IMG/VR virus record: IMGVR_UViG_3300002101_000014 | Coordinates: 1 to 49,422 of that record | DNA length: 49,422 bases | Origin: a virus | Taxonomy: Duplodnaviria > Caudoviricetes | Direction: 5' to 3' (one strand) | In this document: in pieces, positions 3,601-49,197 of the stretch | Position numbering within the stretch: position 1 is the stretch's first letter | Layout: every line of letters starts with the position of its first letter | Notes under the pieces: generated by a model | What the model was told of the DNA's origin: nothing | What the model saw: only the letters and a program-made list of their open reading frames with translations | The model's database searches: none | Made by a program: the position numbers and the translations under genes

Positions 3601-4588
3601 CAGCGCTATTAATCAACCGAACTTGTAAAACCTCTAAACTTACTATTTTATTAGCAATTTCAACCGTATTTCGCTCTGGCTCTTCTGGATAATTCGTAAG
3701 TTTAATTATTCTCTGCCTTTCCTTGATATCCTTGCTCTTGGCTAACAAGGTGATTGTATCCCCTAAACTGTAATCTAAAATACCATAGGTACTATTACTA
3801 CTAAGGTCTAATATATCAGCCCTGTAGGACTTGTAAGGCACGCTTAAATAAGCAAGCCTATCTATGCCATCATCCATTAAAGATTGTGCATCAGTGTATC
3901 TGTTATCTTCCCAATACGCTGTTATTATTTTTCCACTGTACTGATAGTTTTCGATATAATTTAAACCACCATTTATACTTGCTATGCCTAACCCATCTTT
4001 CCCTAAAGGGATAAGTCTTGTAATATAATCATATGAGTTGCGTTGCACATCAAGCTTTTTAAGATTTAATTGTTCTGCAAAATAAGTGCCTTTATCTGAA
4101 CCCATAGCTTGATAGATATAAACTTTTTTATTTATGCCATCAAAATACATTTCGCAACCATAAGCAGATTGAATTTCTTGTAGCACTATGTAGGCACTAC
4201 AGTTATTTTTCCTTACCGTCCTGAGCTTTACTACATCACAAACTCCAATAGTCCATCCTGTACCTACTAATGCCAAATTTATTGAATTAGTACAAGTTTG
4301 CTCTACAGTCTCAAAGTGGCTTACTTCTTTCCCTTTGATTCCTTCGATGTTTATTTTACAAATGTACGCTGTCCAATCATCATCAGAATAGTTAACCTCT
4401 TTGACTATATATTCATTGTCCTTAGTTTGTATATAACACTCTTCAAGGATTGCATCATGTTTTGGATCTGAAATCGGGAAAAGAAAAGACAAAGTTTCAT
4501 CAATATTTATTTCTTTGACAATATTCAGTTCTTTATAATTCGTAAGGCCATCTATTTTATTATGAGCTAATCCATATAATTGAAGCAT
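680..4588 (-). CDS. Tal-like tail tip/fibre protein with central carbohydrate-binding-like module and C-terminal tail collar domain
   Basis: N-terminal prophage tail domain (YITRLIPLGKDG), GGRNLL...DWTPAPED bracketed module, ITLKxTQ repeats, collar motif PPVGWLRADG...VSRTSYANLFAAIG...VPDLRGEFIRG. Confidence 0.9.
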   Translation of the reverse strand: MLQLYGLAHNKIDGLTNYKELNIVKEINIDETLSFLFPISDPKHDAILEECYIQTKDNEYIVKEVNYSDDDWTAYICKINIEGIKGKEVSHFETVEQTCTNSINLALVGTGWTIGVCDVVKLRTVRKNNCSAYIVLQEIQSAYGCEMYFDGINKKVYIYQAMGSDKGTYFAEQLNLKKLDVQRNSYDYITRLIPLGKDGLGIASINGGLNYIENYQYSGKIITAYWEDNRYTDAQSLMDDGIDRLAYLSVPYKSYRADILDLSSNSTYGILDYSLGDTITLLAKSKDIKERQRIIKLTNYPEEPERNTVEIANKIVSLEVLQVRLINSADVVDTVTTSDGLVDGTKVDGIDWTQLQNVHIVIADIQDLSVVTARIGTLEVTTAHITNGIIDNATIDVGKVNNLSATYATIVNLTATNGNITSLTSNIASINTLLAGNLGAGNIAAGAIIAGSGIIAVGAIGSAQISDLSASKITAGIIDAAIITVKNLTADNITAGTINGQRIAAGAIDNSKVSGTANIDGSKLNISSVVTAVNGGTTNIQANRITINSSTLDVQISSILSTQASQGSTITTQGASITANASTIALKVDTTTYNSYVTTNNSAISTINTSLSTQSSSISVLQGQITLKVTQTDINNSIGAIQVGGRNLLKTSNTTFISAVGWGYDWSTTVTVEALIESGEPLIRLTATQSGNYDMYKFVDNLLSIPLVANQNYVISLDVRTTKSYTNGLVFDKLAAPGQVVTANIPNTNGAWQRISLVINIATVPASDAFVLSVSFVAGDVISFKNIKLEIGNKATDWTPAPEDVQSQIDSATTRISTNEGSITLLNNSIVLKATQTDFTTYQSTVSGNFSTTNTNVTTAQTQANLGVTNAASAQGTANTGVTNALTAQTAANLANTNATALTTRVTTAEATIVTQAGQITLKATQTSLDTTNSNVTGVTTRMTTAEGSITTQAGQISLKVSANGVIASINASPETITIDASNLNLNGLVTITNLLTPGSVVIDGGNIKGGTLTLGGASNVSGIEYIKDGSGNNLIVLSKDGMLAKDGIIQIVSTYPDLSQYGQVPGESRVTLKSSQLLAHYVSSGANGTFDATLDSIQGLILTSAGGIGANPYYIKIGYPLISDGFTDVTFDTGIHFKKRSTGVSAFDIGDDGSINSKCFAGMISYMAMNTPPVGWLRADGAPVSRTSYANLFAAIGTLWGTGNGSTTFNVPDLRGEFIRGLSDGSPHDTGRVFSSYQGSQNVSHQHSITHIWNAYSGGGTVHTYLGYNTSATVGNQFATDNTGGTESRPENIALLACIKY

Positions 4589-9370: not shown

Positions 9371-9404
9371 GTAATAAAAAAATACGCCTATATTAAAGCG
9401 TATT
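9371..9404 (-). terminator. Intrinsic terminator after GIY-YIG gene
   Basis: Minus AATACGCTT-taatat-AGGCGTATT followed by T-run. Confidence 0.6.
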
Positions 9405-10431
9405 CCCATGCTAATCTAATGCCATTTTCTAATTTTCCGGCATGCTTTCTTTTCCCTGCACAAGTCATTGAAATTTTGCCTGTACATATATTATATTTTT
9501 TTTCTGCTTGGCTTTGGCATTCAAAATATTCACCAGTAGTAATACAAATAACTGCTCTTGACTTGTGGTTTCTATCGCCCTCATATTTCAATATTTTATA
9601 TTTTTTATTCTCATCATAATTTGATAAATATTCCCACAATAAAGGATTCCCATTAGCATCTTTGCCATAATATCTGCCCTCGCCTTTACAGCATCTAACT
9701 AAACTCCCCTGAGATAAATTGTAATGAATGGCTGCTTTATGTGTACTTTCAAATATTTCTTTAGTGGTAACGCATATAACTTTTACAGGCTCTTTTATAT
9801 TTTTATTATCTTTTAAGCTATATTGTTTATCTTTTTCATAAAATGAAAATTGTAAATATTTTTTAAGCTTTTTACAATAAATCGAAATTCTATCACCTGA
9901 TACAACCCTAGAAACTTGTGTTATGGGAACTTCATAATATATACTAGCCTCTGAAAGTGCTCCATATATAAGTCCATCATTTAGGCAAATCACACTTTTA
10001 GAACTAGGATTATTTGAGCCACTGTGATTATCACGATATATTTTCATCTTCGTTTTATACTCTGGCTTCATCTGAGCTAATCTAACACCTTTAGAAACTT
10101 TTAATTTTGTCTCATTTGAAGCATATTTGTTTTTATTGCCACCACTCTCTAAATTATATCCAAACTTTTCATCCATTGTATTTAATTCTTTAATCCAAAA
10201 CATTTCTCTTCCATCTATGTTTTCTTTATTGCAAAGTTCTATTATAGAAAATTTAAAATTATCTTCACCATATAAGCTCCATGCTCTTTGAAGGTGCTCG
10301 TTCTTATGCCTGTTGCTTTTCAACTCCCATTTGTGTGTTGCAATTCTTCTTTTAAATCCTACTATAGTTTGTCCAACATATACCATATTGTTTTGATTGT
10401 TAGTTATTTTATATATACAACTATTATCCAT
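9388..10431 (-). CDS. GIY-YIG homing endonuclease with NUMOD1-like repeats
   Basis: CIYKITN...VYVGQT; three VIC(L/V/I)..G..(Y/F) DNA-binding repeats; AGGAGG RBS before MDNSC. Confidence 0.85.
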   Translation of the reverse strand: MDNSCIYKITNNQNNMVYVGQTIVGFKRRIATHKWELKSNRHKNEHLQRAWSLYGEDNFKFSIIELCNKENIDGREMFWIKELNTMDEKFGYNLESGGNKNKYASNETKLKVSKGVRLAQMKPEYKTKMKIYRDNHSGSNNPSSKSVICLNDGLIYGALSEASIYYEVPITQVSRVVSGDRISIYCKKLKKYLQFSFYEKDKQYSLKDNKNIKEPVKVICVTTKEIFESTHKAAIHYNLSQGSLVRCCKGEGRYYGKDANGNPLLWEYLSNYDENKKYKILKYEGDRNHKSRAVICITTGEYFECQSQAEKKYNICTGKISMTCAGKRKHAGKLENGIRLAWEYALI

Positions 10432-10467
10432 CCATAGTTCTCCTCCTTCCTGAAAAAAAAGTGCATT

Positions 10468-10497
10468 AAAAAAAAGAGCCTGTTCAAAGCTCTTTTG
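10468..10497 (-). terminator. Intrinsic terminator after SHOCT moron
   Basis: Minus AAAAGAGCTT-tgaac-AGGCTCTTTTTTTT. Confidence 0.7.
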
Positions 10498-10508
10498 ATT
10501 TATCATCA

Positions 10509-10970
10509 CTATATATTTAATAATTGCTTTTTCTTTACATTAAATTCAATATCGGTAATTACTCCAGTATCAAGTAATTCTTTATATTTTTTAATTTCAT
10601 CTGCTGAACTTAGCTGATTAACTATTTGGCCTACAGATGCTTGTTGCATTTCTTCAATCTTTTCTTTAATTTCGCTTACTAATACATTATACTTTTTAGC
10701 AAACATTACGGTATTCTCATCTTGAGTAGCATCGGCAATACCTTTTTTATTTTCTATCCCACCAGGTACTGTAAACTGTATATATCCATTTATGAAATTC
10801 CCACCTTGCCTAATTTGTATACCTGTTATTTGATTTATGTAGAGAGTTTTGTCACCCTTGAAAAATCCTTGTGTCATTTTTGCTAAAGTGCCTTTTCTCT
10901 TGATTATAATTTTATCTGTATATAGTTCCACTTGTCCATTAACACCTTTTAAGGTTAATATAGCTTCCAT
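10509..10970 (-). CDS. DUF4429/PH-like plus SHOCT domain moron protein
   Basis: LKGVNGQVELY...NGYIQF; C-terminal SSADEIKKYKELLDTGVITDIEFNVKKKQLL (SHOCT). Confidence 0.85.
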   Translation of the reverse strand: MEAILTLKGVNGQVELYTDKIIIKRKGTLAKMTQGFFKGDKTLYINQITGIQIRQGGNFINGYIQFTVPGGIENKKGIADATQDENTVMFAKKYNVLVSEIKEKIEEMQQASVGQIVNQLSSADEIKKYKELLDTGVITDIEFNVKKKQLLNI

Positions 10971-10997
10971 AATTAACACATCCCTTCATATATTTCT

Positions 10998-15454: not shown

Positions 15455-16612
15455 TTAACCTCCCTTCACTTCTTGCCCTAAGGCTTCTATTTTTTCATAG
15501 TTTTTAGTGATGTAATGTTGATCTGCCCAGCCCTCCTCTATTTTTGTATCGCCACATTTTACTCTTAAGTCGTTTATACTATAGCCACCTGAGGCAATCA
15601 GCTTATCAAATGCTACCGATATACTAAATAAATCAATGTGACGTATACATGTAGTATCAATTTTTAAATATGAGCCGCTCAGGTAAGGAACTTTGCCATA
15701 TCTTTTACGATTAGTTTCTTCGGACATCATATCTACTAGCGGATCTATACAGAAAGTTAATAGATTGTCTGTAAGGCTTCCAATATCGGAAATATCTCCT
15801 CTTAGTAAAGACGGAGGAATTTTAAAAGCTTGAGCTACTTTATCAAATATTTCTTTTGTTAAAGCGACTATATCGGTAATTTCACTAGATGATTTCTTAC
15901 CAGCTTCACCACCTTGCTCAGTGTATTTGTAGCCTTTATGTAATGGAAGTACAGCGTTTTCAGCCTCGAAATAGCTCTTAAATCTGACATTCATTAAATC
16001 ATCAAATTTAGTTTGAAAGTTTTTATCTCCAGTTGCGGTTGCGTCAATATCTAAAATTCCTTTTCTTCCACCACTGCGGTTATATTTACCCATGGCCATA
16101 TTTGTTAAATTACTATATCCTTTTATCACATTAGATAATAAAACTCTAATATCGTTATCACCTAATTTGAAGTAAAGTACTTCACTCATTTTGAATGAGC
16201 GGTTAAAACACATTGTTCCACTTGTTACACTAGTAAAATAGTTTTCTACGACAGCATACTCATTTTGATAAAAGCTATCTGCAATAATGAGTTGTCCACC
16301 AACATCAAGGACAAGGCATTCATTATTATAGAGTAATTTAGTTACAAGAGCCTGGAGAAATTGGCTTGAATTTTGATTCTTATTAGGTTCAATATTCCAA
16401 AGATAATATTCGTCTGCTTTACTTTCAGCGTATTTTAAATATGTCTTAAATTCACACTTAGAAATTGCACTGGCTATTAAATTAATTGCAGAGCTTATTG
16501 CAAAGACCTCTATAGCTAGCTTGGTCTCCTCACAGGATAATTCCTTTTGGTCTACAGGAATAGAATCTTGCCCTACACCGAAAAAACTAGATATCCATTC
16601 AGTAAATTTCAA
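15455..16612 (-). CDS. Portal protein, HK97 family
   Basis: WNIEPNKNQ, VAQAFKIPPSLL, SINDLR; between terL and protease. Confidence 0.93.
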   Translation of the reverse strand: MKFTEWISSFFGVGQDSIPVDQKELSCEETKLAIEVFAISSAINLIASAISKCEFKTYLKYAESKADEYYLWNIEPNKNQNSSQFLQALVTKLLYNNECLVLDVGGQLIIADSFYQNEYAVVENYFTSVTSGTMCFNRSFKMSEVLYFKLGDNDIRVLLSNVIKGYSNLTNMAMGKYNRSGGRKGILDIDATATGDKNFQTKFDDLMNVRFKSYFEAENAVLPLHKGYKYTEQGGEAGKKSSSEITDIVALTKEIFDKVAQAFKIPPSLLRGDISDIGSLTDNLLTFCIDPLVDMMSEETNRKRYGKVPYLSGSYLKIDTTCIRHIDLFSISVAFDKLIASGGYSINDLRVKCGDTKIEEGWADQHYITKNYEKIEALGQEVKGG

Positions 16613-26069: not shown

Positions 26070-27416
26070 TTAACATGGCCCTCCATCACTTCCGTTAAAT
26101 GCCCCTATCGGATACTTCCAGTCACTCTTTAAAAATATATCCTCTGATTTATAGTCACCTGTTTTTATTTGTTGTATAGCTTCAATATCTGAGGTATCAA
26201 GGCAACTTTCAGCACCTTCTATATATTCTTCCATGGTCTTTTTATTATCTAAAGTAAACCCTAGTATCCTTTCATCCTTACAGACTTCGTTATAGCACTC
26301 TGGGAAGAGTTCTTTAATACCCTGCCAGTGCTTGGGTAAAGAAAAAATACACATCATGCAACTACACCTATTCCATCCAACCCTATAACAAGGGTGAGGA
26401 TTACAATTATTTCTCTTAAGCACTTCCCAAATATCTTTTTCACTATAATCTATAACAGGTCTCCACCAGTGGACCAATCTCTTTGCTCTAGCTAATGCAT
26501 TGGTTCTATGAATCTCCATTTCGTTATACTTTGAACGACCTGGACTCTCACCTCTTCTTTCACCTGATATAACTAATATTTTTGAGTTACTTTTAATTGA
26601 TTCAACATGTGAGGTTACACTGTCTTGAACACTAGCCTTTAATGATCCACTACACCACCTGCCACTATGACAACCGCCTTTAGCAGGGAACTTATGCCTT
26701 TCAGTTCCTAGCTGTTTTAGTTCTTTAAATTGTTCTAGATTTCTGATAACAGTATCACCCACTACTATTTTTAAATAAGCACTACACCACCTAACACTTA
26801 AATCTCCGCTCTTGGCAGGAAACTTCATCCTATATCCATATTCTCTTAATTCTTCTAAGTCTAAAAGATTTTCTCTAAGCTCTTGGCTTCTTTTTTGTCT
26901 TACTGAGAGGTTGCATGTTTTAATTTTTCCTTTATCCATGTATTGGATTGGATAACTGGATCCCACCCTATAAACTTCACCCCAAAAGCCATTAACTCTC
27001 CAAGATAGTCTTAACTCTGTTCCTGTAGCTTCTGCAAATGCTTTTATATAATTCTTAGTTACAGGCCAGTCCATCTTCCTTGTGGGGTGTCCTCCGTCAA
27101 TGTCATGATGCCATAGCTCTATCTTTTCTTTAGGCACTCCCATTTCAATGAGTTTAAAATAGGCAGCTGTAGAATCTTTTCCCCCAGAAAATAAAATTAT
27201 TATTTTGTCATATTCTTCAAGGGGTAGCAACTCTGGAAGATAAAACTTCTCTTGGTAAGGGGTTAAACATTTCCCTTTGATTCTTGGACTTATTTTTATT
27301 CCTGCCCCGTAAGTTACTTTATCTTTTAATCCAACAGTCACAGGTGTATTTATATTACATTCAGAATCTTTTAAAATTCTAATATCGTCAGGGAATAAAC
27401 TTATTTGACCTTCCAA
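26070..27416 (-). CDS. PAPS reductase family (PP-loop) protein
   Basis: FSGGKDS, RWCS..LK, GERRGES..R, HPCY..GW.RCSCMMC. Confidence 0.9.
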   Translation of the reverse strand: MEGQISLFPDDIRILKDSECNINTPVTVGLKDKVTYGAGIKISPRIKGKCLTPYQEKFYLPELLPLEEYDKIIILFSGGKDSTAAYFKLIEMGVPKEKIELWHHDIDGGHPTRKMDWPVTKNYIKAFAEATGTELRLSWRVNGFWGEVYRVGSSYPIQYMDKGKIKTCNLSVRQKRSQELRENLLDLEELREYGYRMKFPAKSGDLSVRWCSAYLKIVVGDTVIRNLEQFKELKQLGTERHKFPAKGGCHSGRWCSGSLKASVQDSVTSHVESIKSNSKILVISGERRGESPGRSKYNEMEIHRTNALARAKRLVHWWRPVIDYSEKDIWEVLKRNNCNPHPCYRVGWNRCSCMMCIFSLPKHWQGIKELFPECYNEVCKDERILGFTLDNKKTMEEYIEGAESCLDTSDIEAIQQIKTGDYKSEDIFLKSDWKYPIGAFNGSDGGPC

Positions 27417-27450
27417 TTTTTCAACCCTCCTCTTGCTTTTTATTTTTACT

Positions 27451-28470
27451 CTAAAACATACTTATTTGTTTAAATTGTGTTTGGGCATTTATCCATGGTG
27501 TATATTCTTCAAAGCTACAGCAAGTATGTTTTCTACTATTAATCCACCCTGCTAATTGATTAAGCCTTATATCATCTTTTCTTTTGTTGTATTTCATTAC
27601 ATAAGGTTTTATATCTAATTCTTCAAGCCTTTTTATTCTGTACATGTCCTCCTCAAAGGTAGTATTAAAACCAGTAAGCAGATAACACATGTGTCTATAT
27701 GGCTTTACAAATTGCTTAAGTAGTTTTATTCCTTCAATAATTTTGGTTTCACTCTCCATTAAGTCCCATGCATAATGCAAGCTTCTAAGATGGTTTACTT
27801 CCCCTAATGCTTTTGCTTTTTCTTCGTTTAGCAATCTAACATCTATCCCTTGTGATATATTAACCTTAAGCTTCCTATCTCGAATTTCTTTAAGCTTTTC
27901 TATACAATCAGGATCCGCAGTTAAATTGTTATCATAAAGGGTTATAACATTTGATCTAGGATTAATAATATCTTTAATTTCTGCTACAGAATGAAGACAG
28001 CCTTCCTTTTGGTTCACTATGCAAAACCCACATTTTCTTATACATCCCCTTGAAGTAAAACCAACACCCATGTCTACTATGATTTGAGATTTTTTAAGCT
28101 TTGATTTTCTTGAAGCAATTCCACCTTTACAAGCATTTTCATAAACCATATTCACTGTGTATAAATCATAATCAGGCTTAAAGGCTTCTATCTCTGGAGG
28201 AAGCTCTGTATGCGTTATTTCTGTAAGTTTTCTATTAATTTCTATAAAATCCCATCCAGTACCACCAAGAATAAGTTTGTCGCCATACTCTTTCTGAAGT
28301 TCTAAGCAATGCTTACGGTTCCAAGTAAATAGGCAACTTGCATATATTTTTTCATATACCTCACCAGATCTAACAAAATCGACTATATAACCTAATGATT
28401 TAAAGAAAGCTGATATCTTCATTAGAGCTAAGTTTGGTAGTTTCCCATCTATGTCTATTAAACCTATCAA
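27451..28470 (-). CDS. Radical SAM protein
   Basis: TSRGCIRKCGFC (CxxxCxxC); N-terminal IDID..LPNLALMKIS. Confidence 0.9.
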   Translation of the reverse strand: MIGLIDIDGKLPNLALMKISAFFKSLGYIVDFVRSGEVYEKIYASCLFTWNRKHCLELQKEYGDKLILGGTGWDFIEINRKLTEITHTELPPEIEAFKPDYDLYTVNMVYENACKGGIASRKSKLKKSQIIVDMGVGFTSRGCIRKCGFCIVNQKEGCLHSVAEIKDIINPRSNVITLYDNNLTADPDCIEKLKEIRDRKLKVNISQGIDVRLLNEEKAKALGEVNHLRSLHYAWDLMESETKIIEGIKLLKQFVKPYRHMCYLLTGFNTTFEEDMYRIKRLEELDIKPYVMKYNKRKDDIRLNQLAGWINSRKHTCCSFEEYTPWINAQTQFKQISMF

Positions 28471-28481
28471 TTCATTCCTCC

Positions 28482-29366
28482 TTACACTGCTTGTCTGTTT
28501 TGATTAAAATATCTTATGGCTTGTTGTCCTATCCATCTAGCCATTGGTACAGCGACCGCATTACCTATTTGCCTATAAGATTTACTATCGGAGCCTGAAA
28601 ACTTAAATGTGTCTGGGAATCCTTGCAATCTAGCAAACTCCTTTACTGTATATGACCTTAAGTTATTGCCGTCTTGAACTAATCTAGTCGAACGGTCTGT
28701 GCCATAATGTGCCACCGCACATGGTGCTATATCTCCCATATCTGGGTTACTTATAATAGGCTTGTCTCTATAGTTACCAATCTTATTTATCCTGTTATAG
28801 GCGTACTGTGGTAGTTCGAACTCAATACCCTTTTCTATAATGTCTTTAAGCTTTATAGGGTTACAAACAGGATATTCGATATTGTCAAAAGGCTTTTTAG
28901 TTGCTATTAAAATCAATCTTTTTCTTTCCTGCGGGAGCCACATATTAGCATTTACAGGGCATTCAATCCTCACATAGTAATCTGGCAATTTTGTTAGTGC
29001 CTCCATGACTATTGGAAATTTCCTCATGCCTGGAACATTTTCCACAATGTACATTTCTGCTTGTTCTAGTGCTATGTGCCTAAAGAAATGTAAAAACAAA
29101 TCATCTCCGGTTCTTGAATTATGTATGTCTGCTGCGGATGAATATTTAGTGCACGGAAATGTACCAACTATTATATCTGTCTTTTCTTGGTCTAAAACTG
29201 TTATCTTACTAATATCTTCTTGATGTATTTCATGGGTAAAGTTATTTCTAAGTGTTTCACAGCATGTTGAATCTATCTCGTAACTATGCAATATATTTAT
29301 TCCTGATTGGGATAAACCTAAGTCCATCCCACCAGCTCCACTAAAATAACTTTTAGCTGTAATCAT
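28482..29366 (-). CDS. DNA cytosine-5 methyltransferase
   Basis: FSGAGG, PC, ENV, PQ.R.R, RLQGFP, QIGNAV. Confidence 0.95.
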   Translation of the reverse strand: MITAKSYFSGAGGMDLGLSQSGINILHSYEIDSTCCETLRNNFTHEIHQEDISKITVLDQEKTDIIVGTFPCTKYSSAADIHNSRTGDDLFLHFFRHIALEQAEMYIVENVPGMRKFPIVMEALTKLPDYYVRIECPVNANMWLPQERKRLILIATKKPFDNIEYPVCNPIKLKDIIEKGIEFELPQYAYNRINKIGNYRDKPIISNPDMGDIAPCAVAHYGTDRSTRLVQDGNNLRSYTVKEFARLQGFPDTFKFSGSDSKSYRQIGNAVAVPMARWIGQQAIRYFNQNRQAV

Positions 29367-29581
29367 TTCTTATCACCTAGTTTCTTGCCACATATAGGGC
29401 AATAGTTGATTTCTATATCTTTAATACCAAATACGTCCGCTATTACTATGTGGCCTTTTTCTATGGATATTTGGGTAAAAGTCTTACTAGTTTCTGCTAT
29501 CGTTTTTATGGTTTTATTCCTAAGGCAATAATTACAACCTTTTCTTTTGCTTACTGAGCAATCATAGCCATCATCTTTCAT
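29363..29581 (-). CDS. Small zinc-ribbon protein
   Basis: CNYC...INYCPICGKKL. Confidence 0.75.
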   Translation of the reverse strand: MKDDGYDCSVSKRKGCNYCLRNKTIKTIAETSKTFTQISIEKGHIVIADVFGIKDIEINYCPICGKKLGDKK

Positions 29582-29997
29582 ATTTCACCTTCTTGAAAAC
29601 CTGATATTACAACTTCTACTTTTGGATTTTCATCATAGAATTTTTCAATCCTTAAAGAAACAATTTGAGAATCATCATCATAAGCAAGTTTATTTAAACT
29701 ATCTAAAATAATCTTTGCTATATTGTCAGCATCAGGCTTTTTAACAGGTCTTGTTGTGTTATCTAGCTTATCTTGCCTAACTTTCTTTGAGCCTGATTTA
29801 GGCACTGAATAGTAAGCACAAATAATGCACTGTAATTGACCCTCGAGCTTTTCTTGCTTGCTTATGATAAATAATTCTTTAACTAAGGTCTCATAATTTA
29901 CTGTTTTAGTTGGGGTATATGTTCCAAACTTGCCTAGTCTCGGTCTACCTTTAGCACATGGTTCACCTGGAATAGCTAGATTTATATATTTATTCAA
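29578..29997 (-). CDS. rusA: RusA family Holliday junction resolvase
   Basis: KGRPR...KKPDADNIAK..LDSLN...YDDDSQI. Confidence 0.92.
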   Translation of the reverse strand: MNKYINLAIPGEPCAKGRPRLGKFGTYTPTKTVNYETLVKELFIISKQEKLEGQLQCIICAYYSVPKSGSKKVRQDKLDNTTRPVKKPDADNIAKIILDSLNKLAYDDDSQIVSLRIEKFYDENPKVEVVISGFQEGEI

Positions 29998-30418
29998 TTA
30001 GCTTTCCTCCTAGTAAAAATCTGATGGCATCAAGCCCCTCAACCCTGTTATTAACTACTTTTAAAAATCCTTTATTCTGTGCTATTACCAGATCCTTTAA
30101 AGGCATGTCCACCATGGATTTAATTTCATCCAACGTATAATAGATATCTAGCTGGAATTTTCCATAATAGTAATCTTGCAATTGCTTTTGTAGTTTACGG
30201 TTGAAGCCTGGTTCACATTCCGTCCTTATATGGCAGTTTCTTTGATGTACCCACCAGATGTTAGTTTTGCAATTCCTTAGTAATGGCTCCTCTGAAAGTT
30301 TTATAACATGGTGTGGTGCTCCTCTACCTACATATACATTTCTCCCGCAAATTTTACATAAATCTTCTGATTCTCGAATTATTTTAGCTTTTAGTTTTGG
30401 GTCTAATTTATCTTTCAT
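29990..30418 (-). CDS. HNH-like hypothetical protein
   Basis: CKICGR...HHVI...N...CH. Confidence 0.6.
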   Translation of the reverse strand: MKDKLDPKLKAKIIRESEDLCKICGRNVYVGRGAPHHVIKLSEEPLLRNCKTNIWWVHQRNCHIRTECEPGFNRKLQKQLQDYYYGKFQLDIYYTLDEIKSMVDMPLKDLVIAQNKGFLKVVNNRVEGLDAIRFLLGGKLIE

Positions 30419-30693
30419 AGCTCCTCCCTCTTAAATATTTTCTTAAATACCCTTAGAAAAAAATATCTTAAGTTATTCTGTTGTTTAGACAATTTATAAG
30501 ATTCAACTTCACATTCCGTAAATCCAGCTTCTAGCATACATTTATCACAAACATCTTTAGTTTCATGTATTTCTTGCTGGCATCCACCATCTTTGCTTCT
30601 AAAAGTAATTTTCATAAAAACTTTACTAAATTCTTCATCTTGTATTTCTTCTCTGCAACAATCACAATAATATTTTGTAAATTCATGTTTCAA
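30415..30693 (-). CDS. Cys-rich hypothetical protein
   Basis: YCDCC...DVCDKC; start moved to TTG after GGAG. Confidence 0.65.
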   Translation of the reverse strand: MKHEFTKYYCDCCREEIQDEEFSKVFMKITFRSKDGGCQQEIHETKDVCDKCMLEAGFTECEVESYKLSKQQNNLRYFFLRVFKKIFKREEL

Positions 30694-30785
30694 ATTTATT
30701 CCATCTCCTTTCAAATGAGTGTCACCTAATAATGACAATACACAGAAATACTCGGGTTTAAGCCTATGTTTAGCTTATTTGTATC

Positions 30786-31202
30786 CTATACATTATTTTT
30801 TGACTTATTAAACCTGTATCCATTTTCTCTGATAAATTTGCCTACTGATGCAGGATTAGAATTTAATCGTTTAGCTATTTTTTTATATGTTAATCCTTCA
30901 TTATGCCATTTGATTAGTTGTTTAATATCAAATCCCTTAGCTGTTTTAACATGTACAAAGTCATTTTTATCTCTAAGCATTACTTTACGTACCTCAGAGT
31001 TTTTTAAATCTTCTTTGCTCAATCCTTTTTTAGGTTGTTTCCTTGGAATACTTTCTCTATATTTTATTTTTCCCTCTTCATCAAGAATTCCAACTAGGAT
31101 ATGGTAAGTATGTATTTCAAGTATTTTGACTTTATTTGATACTGTTCCAACCTTGTTAATTTTTTTATTTAGGATGAATTCTTTTTCTATTGTTAATTCC
31201 AT
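30786..31202 (-). CDS. Hypothetical protein with C-terminal HTH
   Basis: GLTYKKIAKRLNSNPASVGKFI; GAGGAG RBS. Confidence 0.7.
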   Translation of the reverse strand: MELTIEKEFILNKKINKVGTVSNKVKILEIHTYHILVGILDEEGKIKYRESIPRKQPKKGLSKEDLKNSEVRKVMLRDKNDFVHVKTAKGFDIKQLIKWHNEGLTYKKIAKRLNSNPASVGKFIRENGYRFNKSKNNV

Positions 31203-31203
31203 T

Positions 31204-31395
31204 TCACTCCTCCTCAAACATATTTATTTGACCTTTTGTTATTTCAGCTTTTCTACGATTAATATCTGCCCTTACTTTCTTCTTGGCTTTATCTTGTTTT
31301 GTTAGTTTAACAAGACGTCCCCAACATGTCGGACCAATTTTACGAGTAATGCTTTCTTTATCCTTTAGGTTTCTGTGGCAGATAAGGCATTTCAT
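31204..31395 (-). CDS. DUF6011-like zinc finger protein
   Basis: CLICHR.LKD.ESI.R.IGPTC. Confidence 0.8.
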   Translation of the reverse strand: MKCLICHRNLKDKESITRKIGPTCWGRLVKLTKQDKAKKKVRADINRRKAEITKGQINMFEEE

Positions 31396-32279
31396 GATTC
31401 AAACAAAGAGCTTTGTTGTACCTCTTTATCCTTTTCTACAGCCTCAAGGTTCCTAACAGATAGATTAAAATAGCTTTCCTTAAGCTCTATACCTATATAT
31501 TTTCTATCTAGCTGAAGAGCTTTATATCCGCATGAGCCGATACCAGAAAATGGATCTATTACTATGTCACCTTTCGCACTCCATAAATTAATGCAATTTT
31601 CAATAGTATCTAACTGTAAAGGAACTATATGTTTTTCATCCTTTTCTTCCCTTGCAGATTCCCTTTGCAATGTATTGCTTTGGTTAATATCCATCCATAC
31701 AGGCTCGGCTATTTTCTGCCATAAACCTACTGGATAAGATTCCATAGTGTGAGTAATAGGTTTACTATTAACACCCGGCTTTCTGAATGTTAAAACATAA
31801 TCAGGTAATCCTTGCCTACTCATTGCACTATCTTTTCTCAGCTGCTTATGTAATAATCCAAGTGCATTTGTTCTGACCATTTCAACTACAGGAGATTTAT
31901 AAATTGTTACTCTTGAGTGATAAATAAACCCTGCCCTTTGAAATATTCTTATTATCATCCCTGGGAAGTCCTTTAATCCTATTGCTCCATCCCTTTCTTT
32001 CATCATAGGAACATCTACACAATGAATTGATACATTTCTTCCCTCCATCATTATTCTGAATATTTCTCTAACCATGAAATTAAAGTGCCTATAAAACTGT
32101 CTATCATTCTTTGAATTACCCATATCTAAAAAACTACTAGAATATGTGTACAAAGATAAGAAAGGTGGAGATGTTACCAAGTACCCTATTGAATTGCTTG
32201 GAAGTCCTTTTAATACTTGGGTGCTATCTCCGTTATAAAGTGTAAAATTCTTACCTTCAAATTGATTTAATACTTTCAC
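31392..32279 (-). CDS. N4/N6 DNA methyltransferase (beta order)
   Basis: TSPPF before DPFSGIGS; GTG start overlapping helicase stop (TAGTG). Confidence 0.92.
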   Translation of the reverse strand: MKVLNQFEGKNFTLYNGDSTQVLKGLPSNSIGYLVTSPPFLSLYTYSSSFLDMGNSKNDRQFYRHFNFMVREIFRIMMEGRNVSIHCVDVPMMKERDGAIGLKDFPGMIIRIFQRAGFIYHSRVTIYKSPVVEMVRTNALGLLHKQLRKDSAMSRQGLPDYVLTFRKPGVNSKPITHTMESYPVGLWQKIAEPVWMDINQSNTLQRESAREEKDEKHIVPLQLDTIENCINLWSAKGDIVIDPFSGIGSCGYKALQLDRKYIGIELKESYFNLSVRNLEAVEKDKEVQQSSLFES

Positions 32280-33667
32280 TAAGCTACCTCCTTCAGCCAT
32301 TTTGGTAATTTCATTTCTGTTTGTGGGTTATACCCCAACTTTTCATTTACGGTTCCATGCACTTCCTTGGTTAATATTTCTTGAGTATGTTTAACCATTT
32401 CCTCAATCATCTTTTCAGATTCTATTTCTTTTCTCTCAATGTTGGCTTTGACTGCTCCCTCGGCTTCGCTTGTTATAATCCAAACATTAACCTCTTCCTT
32501 TTGTCCAAATCTCCAACACCTTCTAATAGCTTGATATAGTTGCTCGTAACTGTCGGATAAACCAACAAATATCATGTTGTGGCAACTCTGAAAATTTAAA
32601 CCAAATCCAAATATTTCACATTTGCTGACTAGTATTTTTATATCTCCGTTACTAAATCCAATAGCTGCTTTAACTTTATGTTCTGGTTTATTACTACCTG
32701 TTACTTCAACAGCTCCTTTGATTTTTCTTGCAAGCATTTCAGATTCTATATTTAATCCAGTCCATATGAGCCATTGCTCGCCATCTATTAAGCTAATAGC
32801 TTCTTGTACCCTATTAACTAAGCTGTCTCTCCTGGCTTGTCTACGTTCTTGCAATGTTTGAGCCATAACAGGTAACAAACTTATCTGTCCTTGATCTTGA
32901 AATATAGGGCTTTTAACAATAATTTCATTCATATTTAATTTTGGCAGTTCAAATCCTTTGTCGCTGTATCCTAAATCGCTAGGTTTAGTTATTACTAATC
33001 CCCAACTACTAACCCATTCCCAAAATTTATCCTCCGCATGTCCTTTTAATCTCCATTTAGCGGTATCTCCCCCATCGTGTACAAAGTAGGTTGCTAACAT
33101 CTCTACCCTGGAAAGAACATTTAAAAACTCTGCATGATTTCCTAATTCCACATAATCGTTGGGAGCTGGGGTTGCGGTACACGCCAACTTATAAGGGGTA
33201 TCTTTAAAGGTATCTATAATTAATTGTTTATATTTACTATCAAAGGATTTTAAAATACTACTTTCATCAAGGATTATTGCTATAAACTCACTAGAATTAA
33301 AATGAACTAGCATTTCATAGTTGGTGATATTTAAACCTTCTTTTACATCTTCTTGTTTTCTACAACTATTAACTTCAATACCAAACTTTTTACCCTCTCT
33401 TACTGTCTGCTGACTTACTGCTAAAGGAGCTAATAGAAGAATCTTTCCTCCAGTATGTTTATTTATTAATCTTCCCCATTCAAGCTGCATGATTGTTTTA
33501 CCAAGTCCTGTCCCGGCAAATAGAGCAGCCTTTCCTTTTTTCAAGGCCCATTTAACTATGTCTGCTTGATGTTCAAATAGAAGAGGACTTATTTCAGATT
33601 TATTTATATCTAAGCCGCTTGAAATTAACTTTACTTTTTTACTTTCTATAAACTCTCCATAGTCCAT
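32279..33667 (-). CDS. SNF2-like superfamily 2 helicase
   Basis: GTGLGKT, ILDESS, TATP, GFGLN, QAIRRCWRFGQ. Confidence 0.93.
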   Translation of the reverse strand: MDYGEFIESKKVKLISSGLDINKSEISPLLFEHQADIVKWALKKGKAALFAGTGLGKTIMQLEWGRLINKHTGGKILLLAPLAVSQQTVREGKKFGIEVNSCRKQEDVKEGLNITNYEMLVHFNSSEFIAIILDESSILKSFDSKYKQLIIDTFKDTPYKLACTATPAPNDYVELGNHAEFLNVLSRVEMLATYFVHDGGDTAKWRLKGHAEDKFWEWVSSWGLVITKPSDLGYSDKGFELPKLNMNEIIVKSPIFQDQGQISLLPVMAQTLQERRQARRDSLVNRVQEAISLIDGEQWLIWTGLNIESEMLARKIKGAVEVTGSNKPEHKVKAAIGFSNGDIKILVSKCEIFGFGLNFQSCHNMIFVGLSDSYEQLYQAIRRCWRFGQKEEVNVWIITSEAEGAVKANIERKEIESEKMIEEMVKHTQEILTKEVHGTVNEKLGYNPQTEMKLPKWLKEVA

Positions 33668-42920: not shown

Positions 42921-43637
42921 CTAAGCTACCTGATATTTTTTTAGAATCTCGTCAATCCTAACTTCATTGTTTTTGCATAAAGCTACAGCTGTACTGACGC
43001 AAGCTTGGATTTCTGTATCATGGACCATATCTAAAGTCTTTGGTTTAGTCTTTTTGCCTGATTCATTTAGATAATTTGTTATTCTAAGATTTAGGTTAAT
43101 TCCATGTGCATAAAGGAGTTCTTTCTTAAAATCTCTCCATGCGGTTTCATAGCCAACTTTACTACCGTACTTTTTAACAATTGCTTCAATAATTTTTCTA
43201 TCAGCCCATTCTAAGGTTTGTTTTGTAAGAAGCTTATTTTCGGTCTCCAACACATAGACATTATTTTGCAAAGAAAGCAATTGCGTATCTGCCATCTTTA
43301 AAGCCCTTGACATTACAGATTCAGGGCTATTCCATTTTTTCTCTAAGTCTATGAAATATAATCTTGCTTGTTTGCCTTTATCGGTTTTCTGCAACATAGC
43401 TAATTCCTTAGCCATATCTACAGTTATTTCAAAGTCTTGAGCTGGTCTACCACCTAATGAGTTTTCGAGTGATTGCTCGATAACCCTATAATCTTCATTT
43501 TCAGTAAATCCAAATGATTTAAACTGATTAAACCATTTTAAAAACTCACCCCAAGGCTTGTCCAAAAACTCCCACAAATCCCTCGCGCTTGTTGTTTGGT
43601 TATTTTCTTTGTAATTGATTTTCATTAATTCGTTCAA
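42921..43637 (-). CDS. AntA/AntB antirepressor
   Basis: SARDLWEFL...YGF/FGFTENEDY...GGRP..D....DMAKE.AM.Q.T.KG.QAR.YFI.LEK.WNSPE. Confidence 0.9.
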   Translation of the reverse strand: MNELMKINYKENNQTTSARDLWEFLDKPWGEFLKWFNQFKSFGFTENEDYRVIEQSLENSLGGRPAQDFEITVDMAKELAMLQKTDKGKQARLYFIDLEKKWNSPESVMSRALKMADTQLLSLQNNVYVLETENKLLTKQTLEWADRKIIEAIVKKYGSKVGYETAWRDFKKELLYAHGINLNLRITNYLNESGKKTKPKTLDMVHDTEIQACVSTAVALCKNNEVRIDEILKKYQVA

Positions 43638-44375: not shown

Positions 44376-44645
44376 TTATTCTGAACGGTTTGTTAGTGGC
44401 AAATCGTTCTTTTCTTTGTCTAACAATTCTTTGATATAACCAAGGAAAAAACAAATCAAGAGTTTATGGCCTTGTGATTTTGAATTATTGTATACAATTC
44501 CTTTTTCAAACAAACTTAATTTTTTATAAATATCTCCGTATGTTTTGGAATCATTCTTTAGCTCGTCAATAAATTCTTTTGAAACTTGATCAGTAGCTTT
44601 ATCATATTTATCAAATATTTCTTTTAATTTTTCATTGTTACTCAC
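44376..44645 (-). CDS. Hypothetical protein
   Basis: AGGAGG RBS, GTG start. Confidence 0.65.
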   Translation of the reverse strand: MSNNEKLKEIFDKYDKATDQVSKEFIDELKNDSKTYGDIYKKLSLFEKGIVYNNSKSQGHKLLICFFLGYIKELLDKEKNDLPLTNRSE

Positions 44646-44718: not shown

Positions 44719-44856
44719 CTAATTTTTTAAAGTTACTTTGGTATTAACTCCGTATTCCTTTAATATAATTCTCTCCATTACTTCTGCTATATTTTGCAGA
44801 ACCTTATCTTTTTGATCGTTTGAAATTTCAGGACCAATGATAATAACCTTGGGCAA
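44719..44856 (-). CDS. Small hypothetical protein (45 aa, absent from ORF track)
   Basis: GAGGTGG RBS; MPKVIIIGPEISNDQKDKVLQNIAEVMERIILKEYGVNTKVTLKN. Confidence 0.6.
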   Translation of the reverse strand: MPKVIIIGPEISNDQKDKVLQNIAEVMERIILKEYGVNTKVTLKN

Positions 44857-44869
44857 ATTCACCACCTCA

Positions 44870-45151
44870 TTAAATTATATTTTCATCATTGGTTGTCCTA
44901 TTCTTTTTAGTCTCGATTTCTGTTATAATTTCTTCAAATACGTCTGTTGGCACCTGCTTCATAAAAAAACTAACATCCTCACCATATAAATCAGCTAGCT
45001 TTTTAATTGTTTCGGCTCTAGGATTTTTAGATATGCCATTCTCAAGTCTGTAAATTGTTGCCCTTGAAACATTCAACTTCGCAATAACCGTGTTAATACT
45101 TAGCCCTCTGTTTAGTCGAGCCAAGCTAATCTGTTGTGAATTAACTTTCAT
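44870..45151 (-). CDS. Cro-like XRE regulator with acidic C-terminal extension
   Basis: HTH ...LNVSRATIYRLENG...P....IKKLADLYG; first gene of lytic operon. Confidence 0.9.
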   Translation of the reverse strand: MKVNSQQISLARLNRGLSINTVIAKLNVSRATIYRLENGISKNPRAETIKKLADLYGEDVSFFMKQVPTDVFEEIITEIETKKNRTTNDENII

Positions 45152-45351: not shown

Positions 45352-45699
45352 TTGTTTGGTGATAAACTGAAAGAATATAGAAATAGCATAGGATTGACAC
45401 AGGAAGAACTAGCAAATAAAACAAAAATCAATAGGGCTTTAATAGGCATGATTGAAGCAGGTAATAGGCCTCCTTCACAAAGTGTTATTTTAAAATTAGC
45501 TGATTTTAGCAATAAGAGTATTGACTGGTGGTATGGAAAAGAAGATATAGAAAAGAAATGGCAAAGTCTAAATAATTTAGATATGTTAATTGATTATTTA
45601 ATAGAGCAAAATCTAATAAATAAAGATGGCACTATGGATAATAAGACTAAAAACTATTTATGGAAGATGTTGAATGCTGAAATTTTAAAGAAATTGTAG
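45352..45699 (+). CDS. CI-like XRE repressor
   Basis: LKEYR...GLTQEELA....INRALIGMIEAGNR.PS; no S24 peptidase domain. Confidence 0.9.
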   Translation: MFGDKLKEYRNSIGLTQEELANKTKINRALIGMIEAGNRPPSQSVILKLADFSNKSIDWWYGKEDIEKKWQSLNNLDMLIDYLIEQNLINKDGTMDNKTKNYLWKMLNAEILKKL

Positions 45700-45711
45700 A
45701 GGAATGATTAA

Positions 45712-47199
45712 ATGGACAAGATATGTATTTACTTGAGAAAGTCCAGAGCAGACGAAGAAATGGAGAAAACATTAGGACAAGGAGAAACCCTGTCAAAGCA
45801 TAGAAAAGCTTTATTGAAATTTGCAAAGGAAAAGCAATTAAATATAGTTGAGATAAAAGAAGAGATAGTATCTGGTGAAAGCTTATTTTTTAGACCAAAA
45901 ATGTTAGAGCTTTTAAAAGAAGTTGAGGAAAAGCTATATGAAGGTGTCCTTGTAATGGATATGCAGCGTTTAGGACGTGGAGACATGCAAGACCAAGGAA
46001 TGATATTAAAGACCTTTAAAAACTCTCATACGGCAATTATAACCCCACAGAAGACTTATGATCTGTCTAATGACTTTGATGAAGAATATAGTGAGTTTGA
46101 AGCCTTTATGAGTAGAAAAGAATTTAAAATGATTAATCGGAGGATGCAGGGTGGACGAGTAAGAAGTATAGAAGATGGTAACTACCTTTCTCCAATTCCT
46201 CCATTTGGGTATGATATAAATCAAATAGGTAGGAGCCGAACACTAAAGTTTAATGAAATAGAATCAAATATAGTTAAAATTATATTTAAGATGTATGTAG
46301 AAGGCTCTGGAGCTGGGAACATTAGCAAGTATCTAAATTCATTAGGGTATAAAAGTAAAACAGGAATATCCTTTGAAGGCAGCAGTATATTAAATATTCT
46401 GAAGAATCCAGTTTATATCGGGAAAGTGACATGGAAGAAGAAAGAAATAAAGAAATCTATTTCTCCAAACAAAATTAAAGATGCTAGAACTAGAGACATA
46501 TCAGAATGGATTATTGCAAAGGGAAAGCATGAAGCTTTAATCGATGAGGATACCTATTATAGAGCGCAAGAGATTTTAAAGGGCAGATATCATGTACCTT
46601 ATCAGATTATTAATGGAGCCGCTAACCCTTTGGCAGGTATTTTAATATGTTCCCTATGTGGAAATAAAATGGTACTGAGAAAATATAAGGTTGGGCTGCC
46701 CCATTTAATGTGCACGAAATGCGACAATAAAAGCAGTAGATTTGATTATGTTGAAGGTGCTATAATAAAAGCTTTAGAATCCTATCTAAAGACATCAGTT
46801 AATATTAAGCATGAAACACTTGATACTGGAAGCAATAAAAAGCAAATAGAAACACTCAATAGAGAATTAGTAACTTTGAATACTCAAAAAATTAAATTGT
46901 TTGATTTACTCGAGCAAGGAGTATATAGCAATGAGGTGTTTATTGAGAGATCAAATAACATCACCGATAGAATTGAAAGTATCGAAATTGAAGTTGGAAA
47001 GCAGAAAACTATAATTGAAATGCAAACCAAGAAATACCCTAACATTAATATAAAAAAAATAATAGATACCTATAAAATATCAAGTGATATAGTCCAGAAG
47101 AATGAACTATTGAAGAGTATATTATATAAAATAGAATATAAAAAATTAAAGACCCAAAAGGATAATGACTTTGAAATAAGGCTATTCCCCAAATTGTGA
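45712..47199 (+). CDS. Large serine recombinase (integrase)
   Basis: YLRKS catalytic Ser, D..RLGR, PFGY, ILKNPVYIG, HEALI, zinc ribbon CSLCG...CTKC, coiled coil. Confidence 0.95.
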   Translation: MDKICIYLRKSRADEEMEKTLGQGETLSKHRKALLKFAKEKQLNIVEIKEEIVSGESLFFRPKMLELLKEVEEKLYEGVLVMDMQRLGRGDMQDQGMILKTFKNSHTAIITPQKTYDLSNDFDEEYSEFEAFMSRKEFKMINRRMQGGRVRSIEDGNYLSPIPPFGYDINQIGRSRTLKFNEIESNIVKIIFKMYVEGSGAGNISKYLNSLGYKSKTGISFEGSSILNILKNPVYIGKVTWKKKEIKKSISPNKIKDARTRDISEWIIAKGKHEALIDEDTYYRAQEILKGRYHVPYQIINGAANPLAGILICSLCGNKMVLRKYKVGLPHLMCTKCDNKSSRFDYVEGAIIKALESYLKTSVNIKHETLDTGSNKKQIETLNRELVTLNTQKIKLFDLLEQGVYSNEVFIERSNNITDRIESIEIEVGKQKTIIEMQTKKYPNINIKKIIDTYKISSDIVQKNELLKSILYKIEYKKLKTQKDNDFEIRLFPKL

Positions 47200-47200
47200 T

Positions 47201-47252
47201 ATACGTATAACATGCAGAGGGCTATTCATTACCTTCATGGTGTTAGACATAT
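47201..47252. other. Putative att site (imperfect 52-bp inverted repeat)
   Basis: ATAcGTaTAACA....GAgGG-ctattcatta-CCtTC....TGTTAgACaTAT immediately after the integrase stop. Confidence 0.6.
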
Positions 47253-47359
47253 GCTAAGCGTATGCGGGCATTATCATTTATTTCATTCTCTATCTCGGCA
47301 ATAATTTCTTCAAATACTAATTCGGCATTAATAGAAACCTTATTTACTTCCTCGTCCAC
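47243..47359 (-). CDS. 38-aa acidic peptide (absent from ORF track)
   Basis: GGAAGGGAG RBS, GTG start; MDEEVNKVSINAELVFEEIIAEIENEINDNARIRLAYV. Confidence 0.55.
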   Translation of the reverse strand: MDEEVNKVSINAELVFEEIIAEIENEINDNARIRLAYV

Positions 47360-47407
47360 AATAATAATACTCCCTTCCATAATTTTATAATTATTATTCA
47401 TAATATA

Positions 47408-47471
47408 ATTATAATCCTAAATTGGTTCGAGGGGCTTCAACATTTCGACAAAACAACACTAAATATCGACA
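47408..47471 (-). promoter_or_regulatory. Spo0A-box promoter
   Basis: Minus TGTCGAT, TGTCGAA, TGTTGAA boxes; TTGAAG-21-TATAAT. Confidence 0.55.
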
Positions 47472-47483
47472 AACCATTAAATA

Positions 47484-47633
47484 TTATTTAGTTTTGTATT
47501 TAATAATTAAATCTTCTATAGCCTCATCAATTAACCTACTCATAGGAATCTTTGTTTTATCTGCAAGTTTCCTAAATTTTTTATCTAATTTTTTATCAAT
47601 AGAACTGCCTAACCTGACTCTATGTATAAGCAC
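47484..47633 (-). CDS. Ribbon-helix-helix protein (49 aa, absent from ORF track)
   Basis: RVRLGSSIDKKL...LADKTKIPMSRLIDEAIEDL..KY; GGGGTG RBS. Confidence 0.85.
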   Translation of the reverse strand: MLIHRVRLGSSIDKKLDKKFRKLADKTKIPMSRLIDEAIEDLIIKYKTK

Positions 47634-47653
47634 TATATCACCCCAATAAAATA

Positions 47654-47694
47654 ATTATATAAGTCACACAAGGTGCAGACAAGTCACATAAGGT
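47654..47694 (-). promoter_or_regulatory. RHH promoter with direct-repeat operators
   Basis: Minus TTGTCT-17-TATAAT; AAGTCACAyAAGGT at 47661 and 47681. Confidence 0.65.
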
Positions 47695-47764
47695 TATGAT
47701 ACCTACCAAGTGTCGCCTATGTACAGTTTGTAGGCTGTTTTAGTATAATTAGTTAGGTGATAGT

Positions 47765-47965
47765 ATGTATAAGCTTAAGATAAAAGAAATAAGACTATCA
47801 AGGGGATTGAAGCAATATGAGTTAGCTGAAATTTTAGGAATTAGCAAAAGTTTTTTATCTTATATTGAAAATGGTAAAAGTAACATTAAATTATCTCTGC
47901 TTTTAGATATTGCTTTAATCCTAGAAGTCCCTTTCCAAGAATTAGTTGAAACAGACAAAAAATAA
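47765..47965 (+). CDS. XRE family HTH regulator
   Basis: IKEIR...GLKQYELA..LGISKSFLSYIENGK. Confidence 0.9.
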   Translation: MYKLKIKEIRLSRGLKQYELAEILGISKSFLSYIENGKSNIKLSLLLDIALILEVPFQELVETDKK

Positions 47966-48375: not shown

Positions 48376-49197
48376 ATGGGTATTAATAAAATTAATGTAA
48401 TTATCGTAGACGACAATAGAGAGTTTTGTAATATTCTTAATGATTTTTTGTTAAATAAGGATGATATCAATGTAACTGGAATAGCAAAAGATGGAATCGA
48501 AGCTTTAAAATTAATTCAAGAGAATAAACCTGATTTAGTAATATTAGATATTATTATGCCTCATTTAGATGGATTAGGAGTTCTTGAAGAATTAGCTCAT
48601 ATAAACTTTCAGCCTATGCCAAGAATCATTATATTATCAGCAATAGGACAAGACAAAACTACTCAAAGAGCACTAGCATTAGGAGCGGATTATTATGTAA
48701 TTAAGCCTTTTGATTTAGATATCTTTATTAAAAGGGTTAGGGATATGTTTAATGACATTTTATCAAGCAATGAAGTTGAAAATGAAATTTTGCTCGATGA
48801 AATAAAAGAGCTTAAGCATGTACGTAAAACTATAAATCCACATGACCTAGAGATAGATATAACTAATATTATGCATGCAATTGGGATACCTGCTCATATA
48901 AGGGGTTATGCGTTTATAAGAGCGGCGATAATCTTGGTAGTTAATGATGTTAAGATTTTATCAGCAATTACAAAGGAGCTTTACCCTAATATAGCAAAAA
49001 AATATAATACCACTCCTAGCAGAGTCGAACGAGCTATCGGGCATGCCGTAGAAGTGGCTTGGGGAAGAGGACAAGTGGATACTATTAATAAGATTTTTGG
49101 TTATACGATTAACAATGGAAAGGCAAAGCCTACAAATAGCGAGTTCATTGCTATGGTTTCCGATAAAATAAGACTTAGTTATAAGATGGCTAATTAA
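48376..49197 (+). CDS. spo0A: Spo0A paralog (full length)
   Basis: Receiver [19 protein letters not shown]; effector [40 protein letters not shown]. Confidence 0.93.

Follow-up and report, generated by a model that had tools for sequence, protein, structure and literature searches.

Introduction

The closest described counterpart of the switch considered here is AimX-AimC-AimL, in which a 29-aa peptide, AimX, is described as blocking the short non-cleavable repressor AimC via its C-terminal domain (10.1101/2025.11.23.689978; structure 9SF2). Going by that account, the two systems share an 80-140 aa, non-cleavable helix-turn-helix (HTH) repressor divergent from a cro-like gene, and a tiny (29-80 aa) divergent peptide encoded outside the lytic operon whose type tracks that of the repressor. 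They differ in that phi106 has a LexA site where the present phage has 0A boxes, and in that the present phage is clostridial, splits sigK and carries a second peptide copy inside the cro operon. Likened by description, GfoA/GfhA of the Gifsy prophages (PMC3121763) also combine an uncleaved repressor, a small antirepressor gene outside the immunity region and control by a host regulator, but they are enterobacterial and LexA-controlled, and the available text mentions no twin copy. On the chromosome of Bacillus subtilis, SinI/SlrA-SinR (PMC3917956) is described as a biofilm switch in which two separately controlled small antagonists act on one short HTH repressor, and a published abstract has Spo0A~P acting via the SinI-SinR network. 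Host Spo0A sites on phage promoters are known from phi29 and Nf (PMC2731898), which, unlike the phage studied here, are lytic; there Spo0A is described as repressing early, lytic promoters, with no antirepressor in the account given. Phage-borne copies of Spo0A that lack the receiver domain have been reported from gut viromes (PMC10294663).

The nearest described element by integration site is phiS63, a UV-inducible phage that integrates in sigK (PMC3442830). Directionality factors have been described for other elements, namely Skr and CD1234, both under sigmaE control (PMC5025042, PMC6957869); for phiS63-type sigK elements, no named factor was found in the literature as far as its accessible text goes.

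Here we describe a phage that has the same three small unannotated genes as phiS63, namely two copies of a peptide and a 45-aa candidate directionality factor. The arrangement belongs to a known kind, the small-antirepressor switch, here in a twin-copy layout and with a likely change of input from LexA to Spo0A.

Results

Layout of the switch region

The DNA analysed, hereafter the window, covers all 49,422 bases of one virus record. It comes from a clostridial siphophage whose minus strand encodes the tail, head, packaging and replication genes; the left end of the window stops before any lysin gene. The switch region runs from cro through a 115-aa CI to a 495-aa large serine integrase, and the att site and the 38-aa peptide gene follow (Table 1). 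A second assembly, L056, is identical to the window across 10,071 bases and extends into an HD-domain gene.

Several further features were seen in passing. PAPS-reductase-like, radical-SAM-like and two DNA methylase genes lie near each other at 26070-32300 and possibly form a DNA modification cluster. The tail module includes GIY-YIG and DUF4429-SHOCT genes (9388-10979), the early operon an AntA-type antirepressor gene (42921-43637), and an exact 19-nt repeat occurs at 15839, in the portal gene, and at 44607, in ORF 44376-44645. Two 14-nt direct repeats (47661-47694) lie across the promoter of the ribbon-helix-helix gene and may be its own operator.

Table 1. Features of the switch region and its surroundings, in window positions.
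Feature	Position	Strand	Basis
45-aa candidate recombination directionality factor	44719..44856	-	
Cro-like protein carrying an in-frame fusion to the first peptide copy (motif 44912-44941), which relatives have as a separate 25-aa gene	44870..45151	-	
Conserved SpoIIID/sigmaE-like motif upstream of the 45-aa gene, inside the cro tail	44874..44902	-	consensus partly as given in PMC5025042
Short CI-like repressor, 115 aa, HTH plus helix-hairpin-helix C-terminal domain, without protease domain; likely target	45352..45699	+	
Large serine integrase, skin/phiS63 class	45712..47199	+	domain and sequence comparison
attP of a serine integrase that targets sigK; core 47224-47233 matches the G-N-E codons of sigK; phage-type arms on both sides	47204..47249	.	
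Acidic 38-aa peptide (net -7), a likely CI antirepressor and second copy of the post-cro peptide	47243..47359	-	
Ribosome-binding site GGAAGGGAG	47370..47378	-	sequence
TATAAT and weak -35 (TTGAAG) 21 nt apart, without LexA-type box	47408..47440	-	sequence scan
Three 0A-like boxes TGTTGAA, TGTCGAA, TGTCGAT, one perfect (47444-50)	47436..47471	-	read on the sense strand of the peptide gene
Ribbon-helix-helix gene preceding the peptide gene	47484..47633	-	
Full-length Spo0A paralogue, G for R in the recognition helix; link to peptide putative	48376..49197	+	

Integration site

Judged by its sequence, the att site is the attP of a sigK-splitting prophage of the skin type, like phiS63. The integrase carries resolvase, recombinase and zinc-ribbon domains, is 58% identical to that of phiS63 and shares its sigK site and orientation; the att core has GTAATGAA in common with the published phiS63 core. 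Among 13 close integrase relatives from species genomes (17 loci were returned), 10 are closely followed by 5'-half sequence of sigK, which lies on the other strand and breaks off at the G-N-E codons, the exceptions being L032, L033 and L036. The right arm shares 8-12 of 16 bases with the phage arms of all 8 other cases but one (L138, 5/16), as against 6/16 for the sigK arms in all 7. Contigs of runs X1 and X2, from which this DNA may stem, cross the site unbranched, and no sigK junction was seen in them, contigs being a record of presence and not of absence. A scan of viral contigs with the att-core pattern returned 23 stretches, of which only L019 (on the same contig as L003) has a related site. 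A host origin of the DNA to the right of att (47243-47965) was considered and rejected, given the phage-type arm and the ribbon-helix-helix and HTH genes at the far ends of L051, L133, L138 and L141.

Since the site is an attP, the 38-aa gene is a far-end gene of the prophage and would face the 3' part of sigK once integrated. The preliminary description had the stop of this unannotated ORF inside the att arm, as is the case; the stop lies outside the core, so the ORF is intact in both the integrated and the excised state. That description had passed over three points, namely that the att core is the sigK site, that the site is an attP and that the tail of Cro is a fused separate gene.

Two observations concern sigK in other genomes. 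Clostridium akagii (G002) has three copies of the sigK 3'-half (L049 4158-4448 and 15772-16062; L050 1-250), two of them with a visible phage-type arm, and these copies are traces of repeated integration. In G001, a second sigK (L052 3883-4583) is phage-free but lies in two frames, through mutation or assembly error.

The 38-aa peptide gene and its twin at cro

The 38-aa ORF is open, starts at GTG 10 nt downstream of an intact ribosome-binding site and was recorded by a gene caller too, on two contigs; it is presumably translated. Its core, VFEEIIAEIE (47288-47317), and VFEEIITEIE in the tail of Cro agree at 9/10 residues, as first reported, and the shared repeat is likewise where it had been placed, an exact 17-nt match at 47301 and 44925, after which the 10 motif codons show three synonymous changes and one replacement. 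Repeats of 17 nt are uncommon rather than unique, with three such loci in the window. The residues at either end of the 38-aa peptide are extra and unconserved. No full-length homologue was found in collections of 5.8 and 1.84 billion proteins, which returned the ORF itself or nothing; there was no Pfam family and a single weak PHROG match (E 0.087), and the matches in the Atlas were without names and of low recognition. PDB profile searches with the peptide and with the 45-aa family gave chance-level rows only. No sequence match of the peptide to SinI, whose gene is under Spo0A control, was found.

The placement of the motif in a C-terminal extension of Cro is true of the window but does not carry over to its relatives. 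In all three that share its CI type (L039 from C. akagii, L057 and L058, with CI 67-71% identical to that of the window), the motif is a separate 25-aa ORF at the cro stop with a ribosome site of its own; L057 reads DVFEEIITEIEND. The Cro-peptide fusion was seen only in the window, where one low-depth contig of run X3 covers it without difference.

Twin copies and repressor types among relatives

A CI profile search matched 43 of 386 scored Clostridiaceae genomes, and 20 of 48 places were examined. Elements with a second CI type have a different post-cro peptide and, at the far att end, a copy of like type (L003, G003, G256, G028, G344 and G363). The earlier suggestion of one motif delivered two ways is supported, the twin copies recurring across the family. 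No far-end second copy was found in G309 despite its short CI, nor any second copy in C. akagii, the only close relative with a genome; among other far ends inspected, the contig of G402 stops at the site, and no short CI is present in the covered DNA of G232, G244 and G060. The 18 short-CI loci without a sigK-type integrase include 11 with a post-cro peptide, L164 with a cI-facing copy only, and six (L157, L159, L161, L163, L165 and L166) with no clear post-cro peptide, all three groups being judged by eye. The second copy faces cI in L148, L151, L152, L156, L160 and L164, as it does in phiS63. Twin copies occur beside tyrosine integrases (L156, L160) or without a nearby integrase (L151, L152).

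The second copy resembles the first copy of its own element across 11 two-copy elements (permutation p 4e-5); the own first copy is the top match in 5/11 only, with near ties staying within one type. Compared with 23 post-cro peptides, the att peptide reached a shuffle p <= 0.003 only for the four from elements with the window's CI type, its own included. Across 12 sigK-type elements, the peptide covaries with the CI C-terminus (rho 0.53, p 0.0008) and not with the integrase (rho 0.08, p 0.29). Since the post-cro copy is linked to both cI and cro, linkage would itself make it covary, and Cro would fit the pattern as well as CI does; linkage accounts for part of the covariation and not for the match of distant copies. 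Among 28 sigK-type elements (de-duplicated by hand, with near-identical ones merged and loci with hardly any upstream sequence excluded), 13 have both short CI and peptide, one has CI only, none the peptide only and 14 neither, a table that is partly circular because the peptide and CI profiles were built from the same loci.

Upstream of the second copy, a LexA-type core with at most one mismatch to the consensus occurs in 8/12 cases, two of the eight being near-twins. In phiS63, a held-out case, both peptide copies are unannotated, and the copy facing cI sits behind a perfect LexA-type box, CGAACAAATGTTCG; its orientation and this box set it apart from the second copy of the window. The three unannotated phiS63 ORFs (L179), the candidate directionality factor and the two peptide copies, lie at 3249-3380, 3423-3500 and 4323-4406. 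Two other loci are of interest in their own right. L164 (G046, 2810-3299) pairs a short repressor with a convergent LexA-boxed peptide; neither cro nor an integrase is nearby, and the locus may be a domesticated switch. In L138 (G232), an ImmA-type element, a LexA-boxed far-end slot, some 130-380 nt ahead of the sigK 3' part, carries a different ORF of 65-73 aa.

The CI repressor as likely target

The model of CI (pLDDT 87, 31 sequences) has an HTH followed by two C-terminal helices joined by a short hairpin, a predicted arrangement like that described for AimC (10.1101/2025.11.23.689978). 9SF2, the phi106 repressor with AimX, ranked among the best matches of CI, with E 1e-7 by profile and 2e-3 by Foldseek, mostly via the HTH. 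The 51 window ORFs scanned held no protease domain on CI, no ImmA-type gene and no TPR-type Pfam match (the lysis end falls outside the window), and no aimR or aimP adjoins cI; since neither gene was found, the switch is not a member of the arbitrium family.

The target had been left between integrase, CI and Cro. Of these, the integrase finds no support in the covariation and CI is the likely one. It is quite probable that the peptide is an antirepressor that would bind CI. By analogy, it is likely of the AimX/Gifsy kind and not a directionality factor, because it tracks the repressor rather than the integrase and occurs beside tyrosine integrases or none.

A promoter with 0A boxes

The promoter of the 38-aa gene has all the elements first attributed to it, a TATAAT at 47408-13, a TTGAAG 21 nt upstream at 47435-40, and three 0A-like boxes, one of them perfect; two further 0A boxes lie inside the ORF (47294-300 and 47321-27). 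Such a cluster arose in 3 of 5000 dinucleotide shuffles (0.0006), and an equal score was obtained only for 130-nt windows starting at 47201-47431 (20/4930), so that this is the sole such cluster in the window. Spo0A-activated promoters of the spoIIG type have a TATAAT, a long spacer and 0A boxes over the -35, a layout that the peptide promoter matches. The sense-strand reading TGTCGAA, on the other hand, is what we take to be the abrB (repressed) orientation; no confirmation of this orientation rule was found in the literature, and the four clostridial spoIIGA promoters compared are without a perfect box. The best LexA match at the peptide promoter has two mismatches to the consensus, which is chance level, and no LexA core was found near the switch of the window. 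A sigmaH reading was rejected by eye, its spacing being too short against the consensus, and no sigmaE/SpoIIID promoter was evident by eye upstream of the peptide. A sigma70-type promoter with a 17-nt spacer (47682-47654) is directed toward the peptide gene, and no terminator was found between the ribbon-helix-helix gene and the peptide gene. In a related element from an independent run, X5, the TATAAT, the spacing and the perfect box are kept and the upstream box is changed; the same promoter runs into a different-looking ORF start, the sequence departing just after the ribosome site.

Of the proposed Spo0A control, the non-random cluster stands; it is known from one phage only, the relatives use LexA-type boxes, and the choice between activation and repression is unsettled. 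From the sequence, 0A control of the peptide gene probably works, by a modest margin of belief. There is a slight lean toward Spo0A~P as activator rather than repressor here, because of the weak, unusually spaced -35 and because no other inducing input was found. The 0A boxes likely replace the LexA box in this phage, and this version is a single case since no second copy was found in C. akagii or at the G309 far end.

A candidate directionality factor

The preliminary description had likened the 38-aa peptide to SprB and to Cox-like excisionases. This is not supported, given its failure to track the integrase, its presence with tyrosine integrases or none and its absence from three reduced skins. 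The 45-aa ORF downstream of cro is probably the directionality factor instead, a role suggested by its distribution. It has a match in 24/28 sigK-type elements and in 0/18 other short-CI loci, occurs in phiS63 and THSA-485A and tracks the integrase weakly (rho 0.27, p 0.001, n 19). It is retained in L042 (8 kb), G060 (under 3 kb) and G282 (where the DNA after the integrase is not sigK), all without this cI, cro and peptide; in the reduced skins L042, L121 and L129, it is kept and a peptide match is absent. The family is PHROG 15837, of unknown function. A sigmaE-like pattern lies upstream of 13/20 copies, 11 at the same offset, versus 8/137 background starts, the pattern having been fitted on these copies. 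By description, the 45-aa gene may be set beside Skr and CD1234 (PMC5025042, PMC6957869).

A Spo0A paralogue near the far end

An arginine of the Spo0A recognition helix contacts DNA, and no published role for it was found in the literature. It is present in both solved effector domains and in all 11 readable homologues among 12 loci; the window paralogue has glycine. The nearest relatives of the paralogue (83% DNA identity) are two orphan copies in the bacterial genome G039, one beside a sigG-like gene, and the paralogue itself may belong to the phage or to host DNA.

Discussion

The reading we favor, and hold to be somewhat more probable than not, is a twin-antirepressor switch whose far-end copy is likely under Spo0A~P in this phage and likely under LexA in its relatives. 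The copy outside the operon would be the trigger and sensor. Release of CI would then allow the cro operon to produce the fused copy as an amplifier, a positive feedback locking in lysis, along with the separate 45-aa candidate directionality factor, with which the integrase would excise the prophage. In a sporulating mother cell, the 45-aa factor may instead be made alone from its own sigmaE-type promoter, thereby restoring sigK without lysis. It speaks against the proposal that a Spo0A trigger would be lethal to cells on the verge of sporulation. A more elaborate version is doubtful, namely that the LexA trigger was swapped for Spo0A~P as a means of sensing starvation, with the DNA-binding-defective paralogue of the phage setting the threshold and with lysis at the onset of sporulation set apart from a later, silent, sigmaE-timed excision. 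On that version, a low pulse of Spo0A~P might also repair sigK at an early stage, and clostridia are stated to need sigmaK early (PMC10747680).

The alternative that stays closest to the twin-antirepressor switch keeps the peptide as an antirepressor but makes it Spo0A-repressed, a veto holding the prophage quiet in sporulating cells, with transcription from the ribbon-helix-helix promoter. The 0A boxes within the ORF would suit it, as would the sigma70-type promoter that reaches the peptide gene with no terminator found between, the phi29 precedent as described (PMC2731898), and the sense-strand orientation. That orientation rule found no confirmation in the literature, however, the near promoter is counted against it for want of a normally spaced -35, and a veto leaves no known inducing signal. 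We consider it unlikely; its confidence overlaps that of the favored reading because it is a sub-case of it. Lower still, and about equal to each other, are two further alternatives. One is that the 38-aa ORF is a decaying, unregulated copy and that the boxes serve something else, for which speak the missing full-length homologue, the extra, unconserved termini and the departure of X5 just after the ribosome site; yet the ribosome site and frame are intact, the core has three synonymous changes against one replacement, and the only 0A cluster of the window sits at this gene.

In the other, the target of the peptide is Cro, or CI and Cro in complex, and not CI by itself. The peptide always adjoins cro and in the window is fused to it, and cro types vary with CI types, but L164 pairs CI with a LexA-boxed peptide with no cro nearby, and second copies often converge on cI (L148, L151, L152, L156, L160 and phiS63). 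Highly improbable, finally, is the first proposal, a sporulation-induced, SprB-like directionality factor for the integrase. A small gene at the far att end, acidic as CD1234 is reported to be (pI 5.5; PMC5025042), would fit such a role. Nevertheless the peptide does not covary with the integrase, it is present with tyrosine integrases or none, and L042, L121 and L129 lack a peptide match yet keep the 45-aa gene, which is found in 24/28 sigK-type elements and none of the 18 others and itself covaries with the integrase (rho 0.27).

The twin-antirepressor switch offers a testable answer to the question of what induces clostridial prophages whose repressor is uncleavable, UV-inducible phiS63 among them, namely an overlooked peptide (about 20-45 aa) that they encode both as sensor and as amplifier. 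The analysis also puts forward a directionality factor candidate for sigK elements of the phiS63 type. By title and abstract, no case of temperate phage induction through a Spo0A-wired antirepressor was found in the literature searched, most subscription journals being outside its scope. Should the 0A boxes prove functional, the phage described here would be a temperate one with its induction coupled to Spo0A via an antirepressor.
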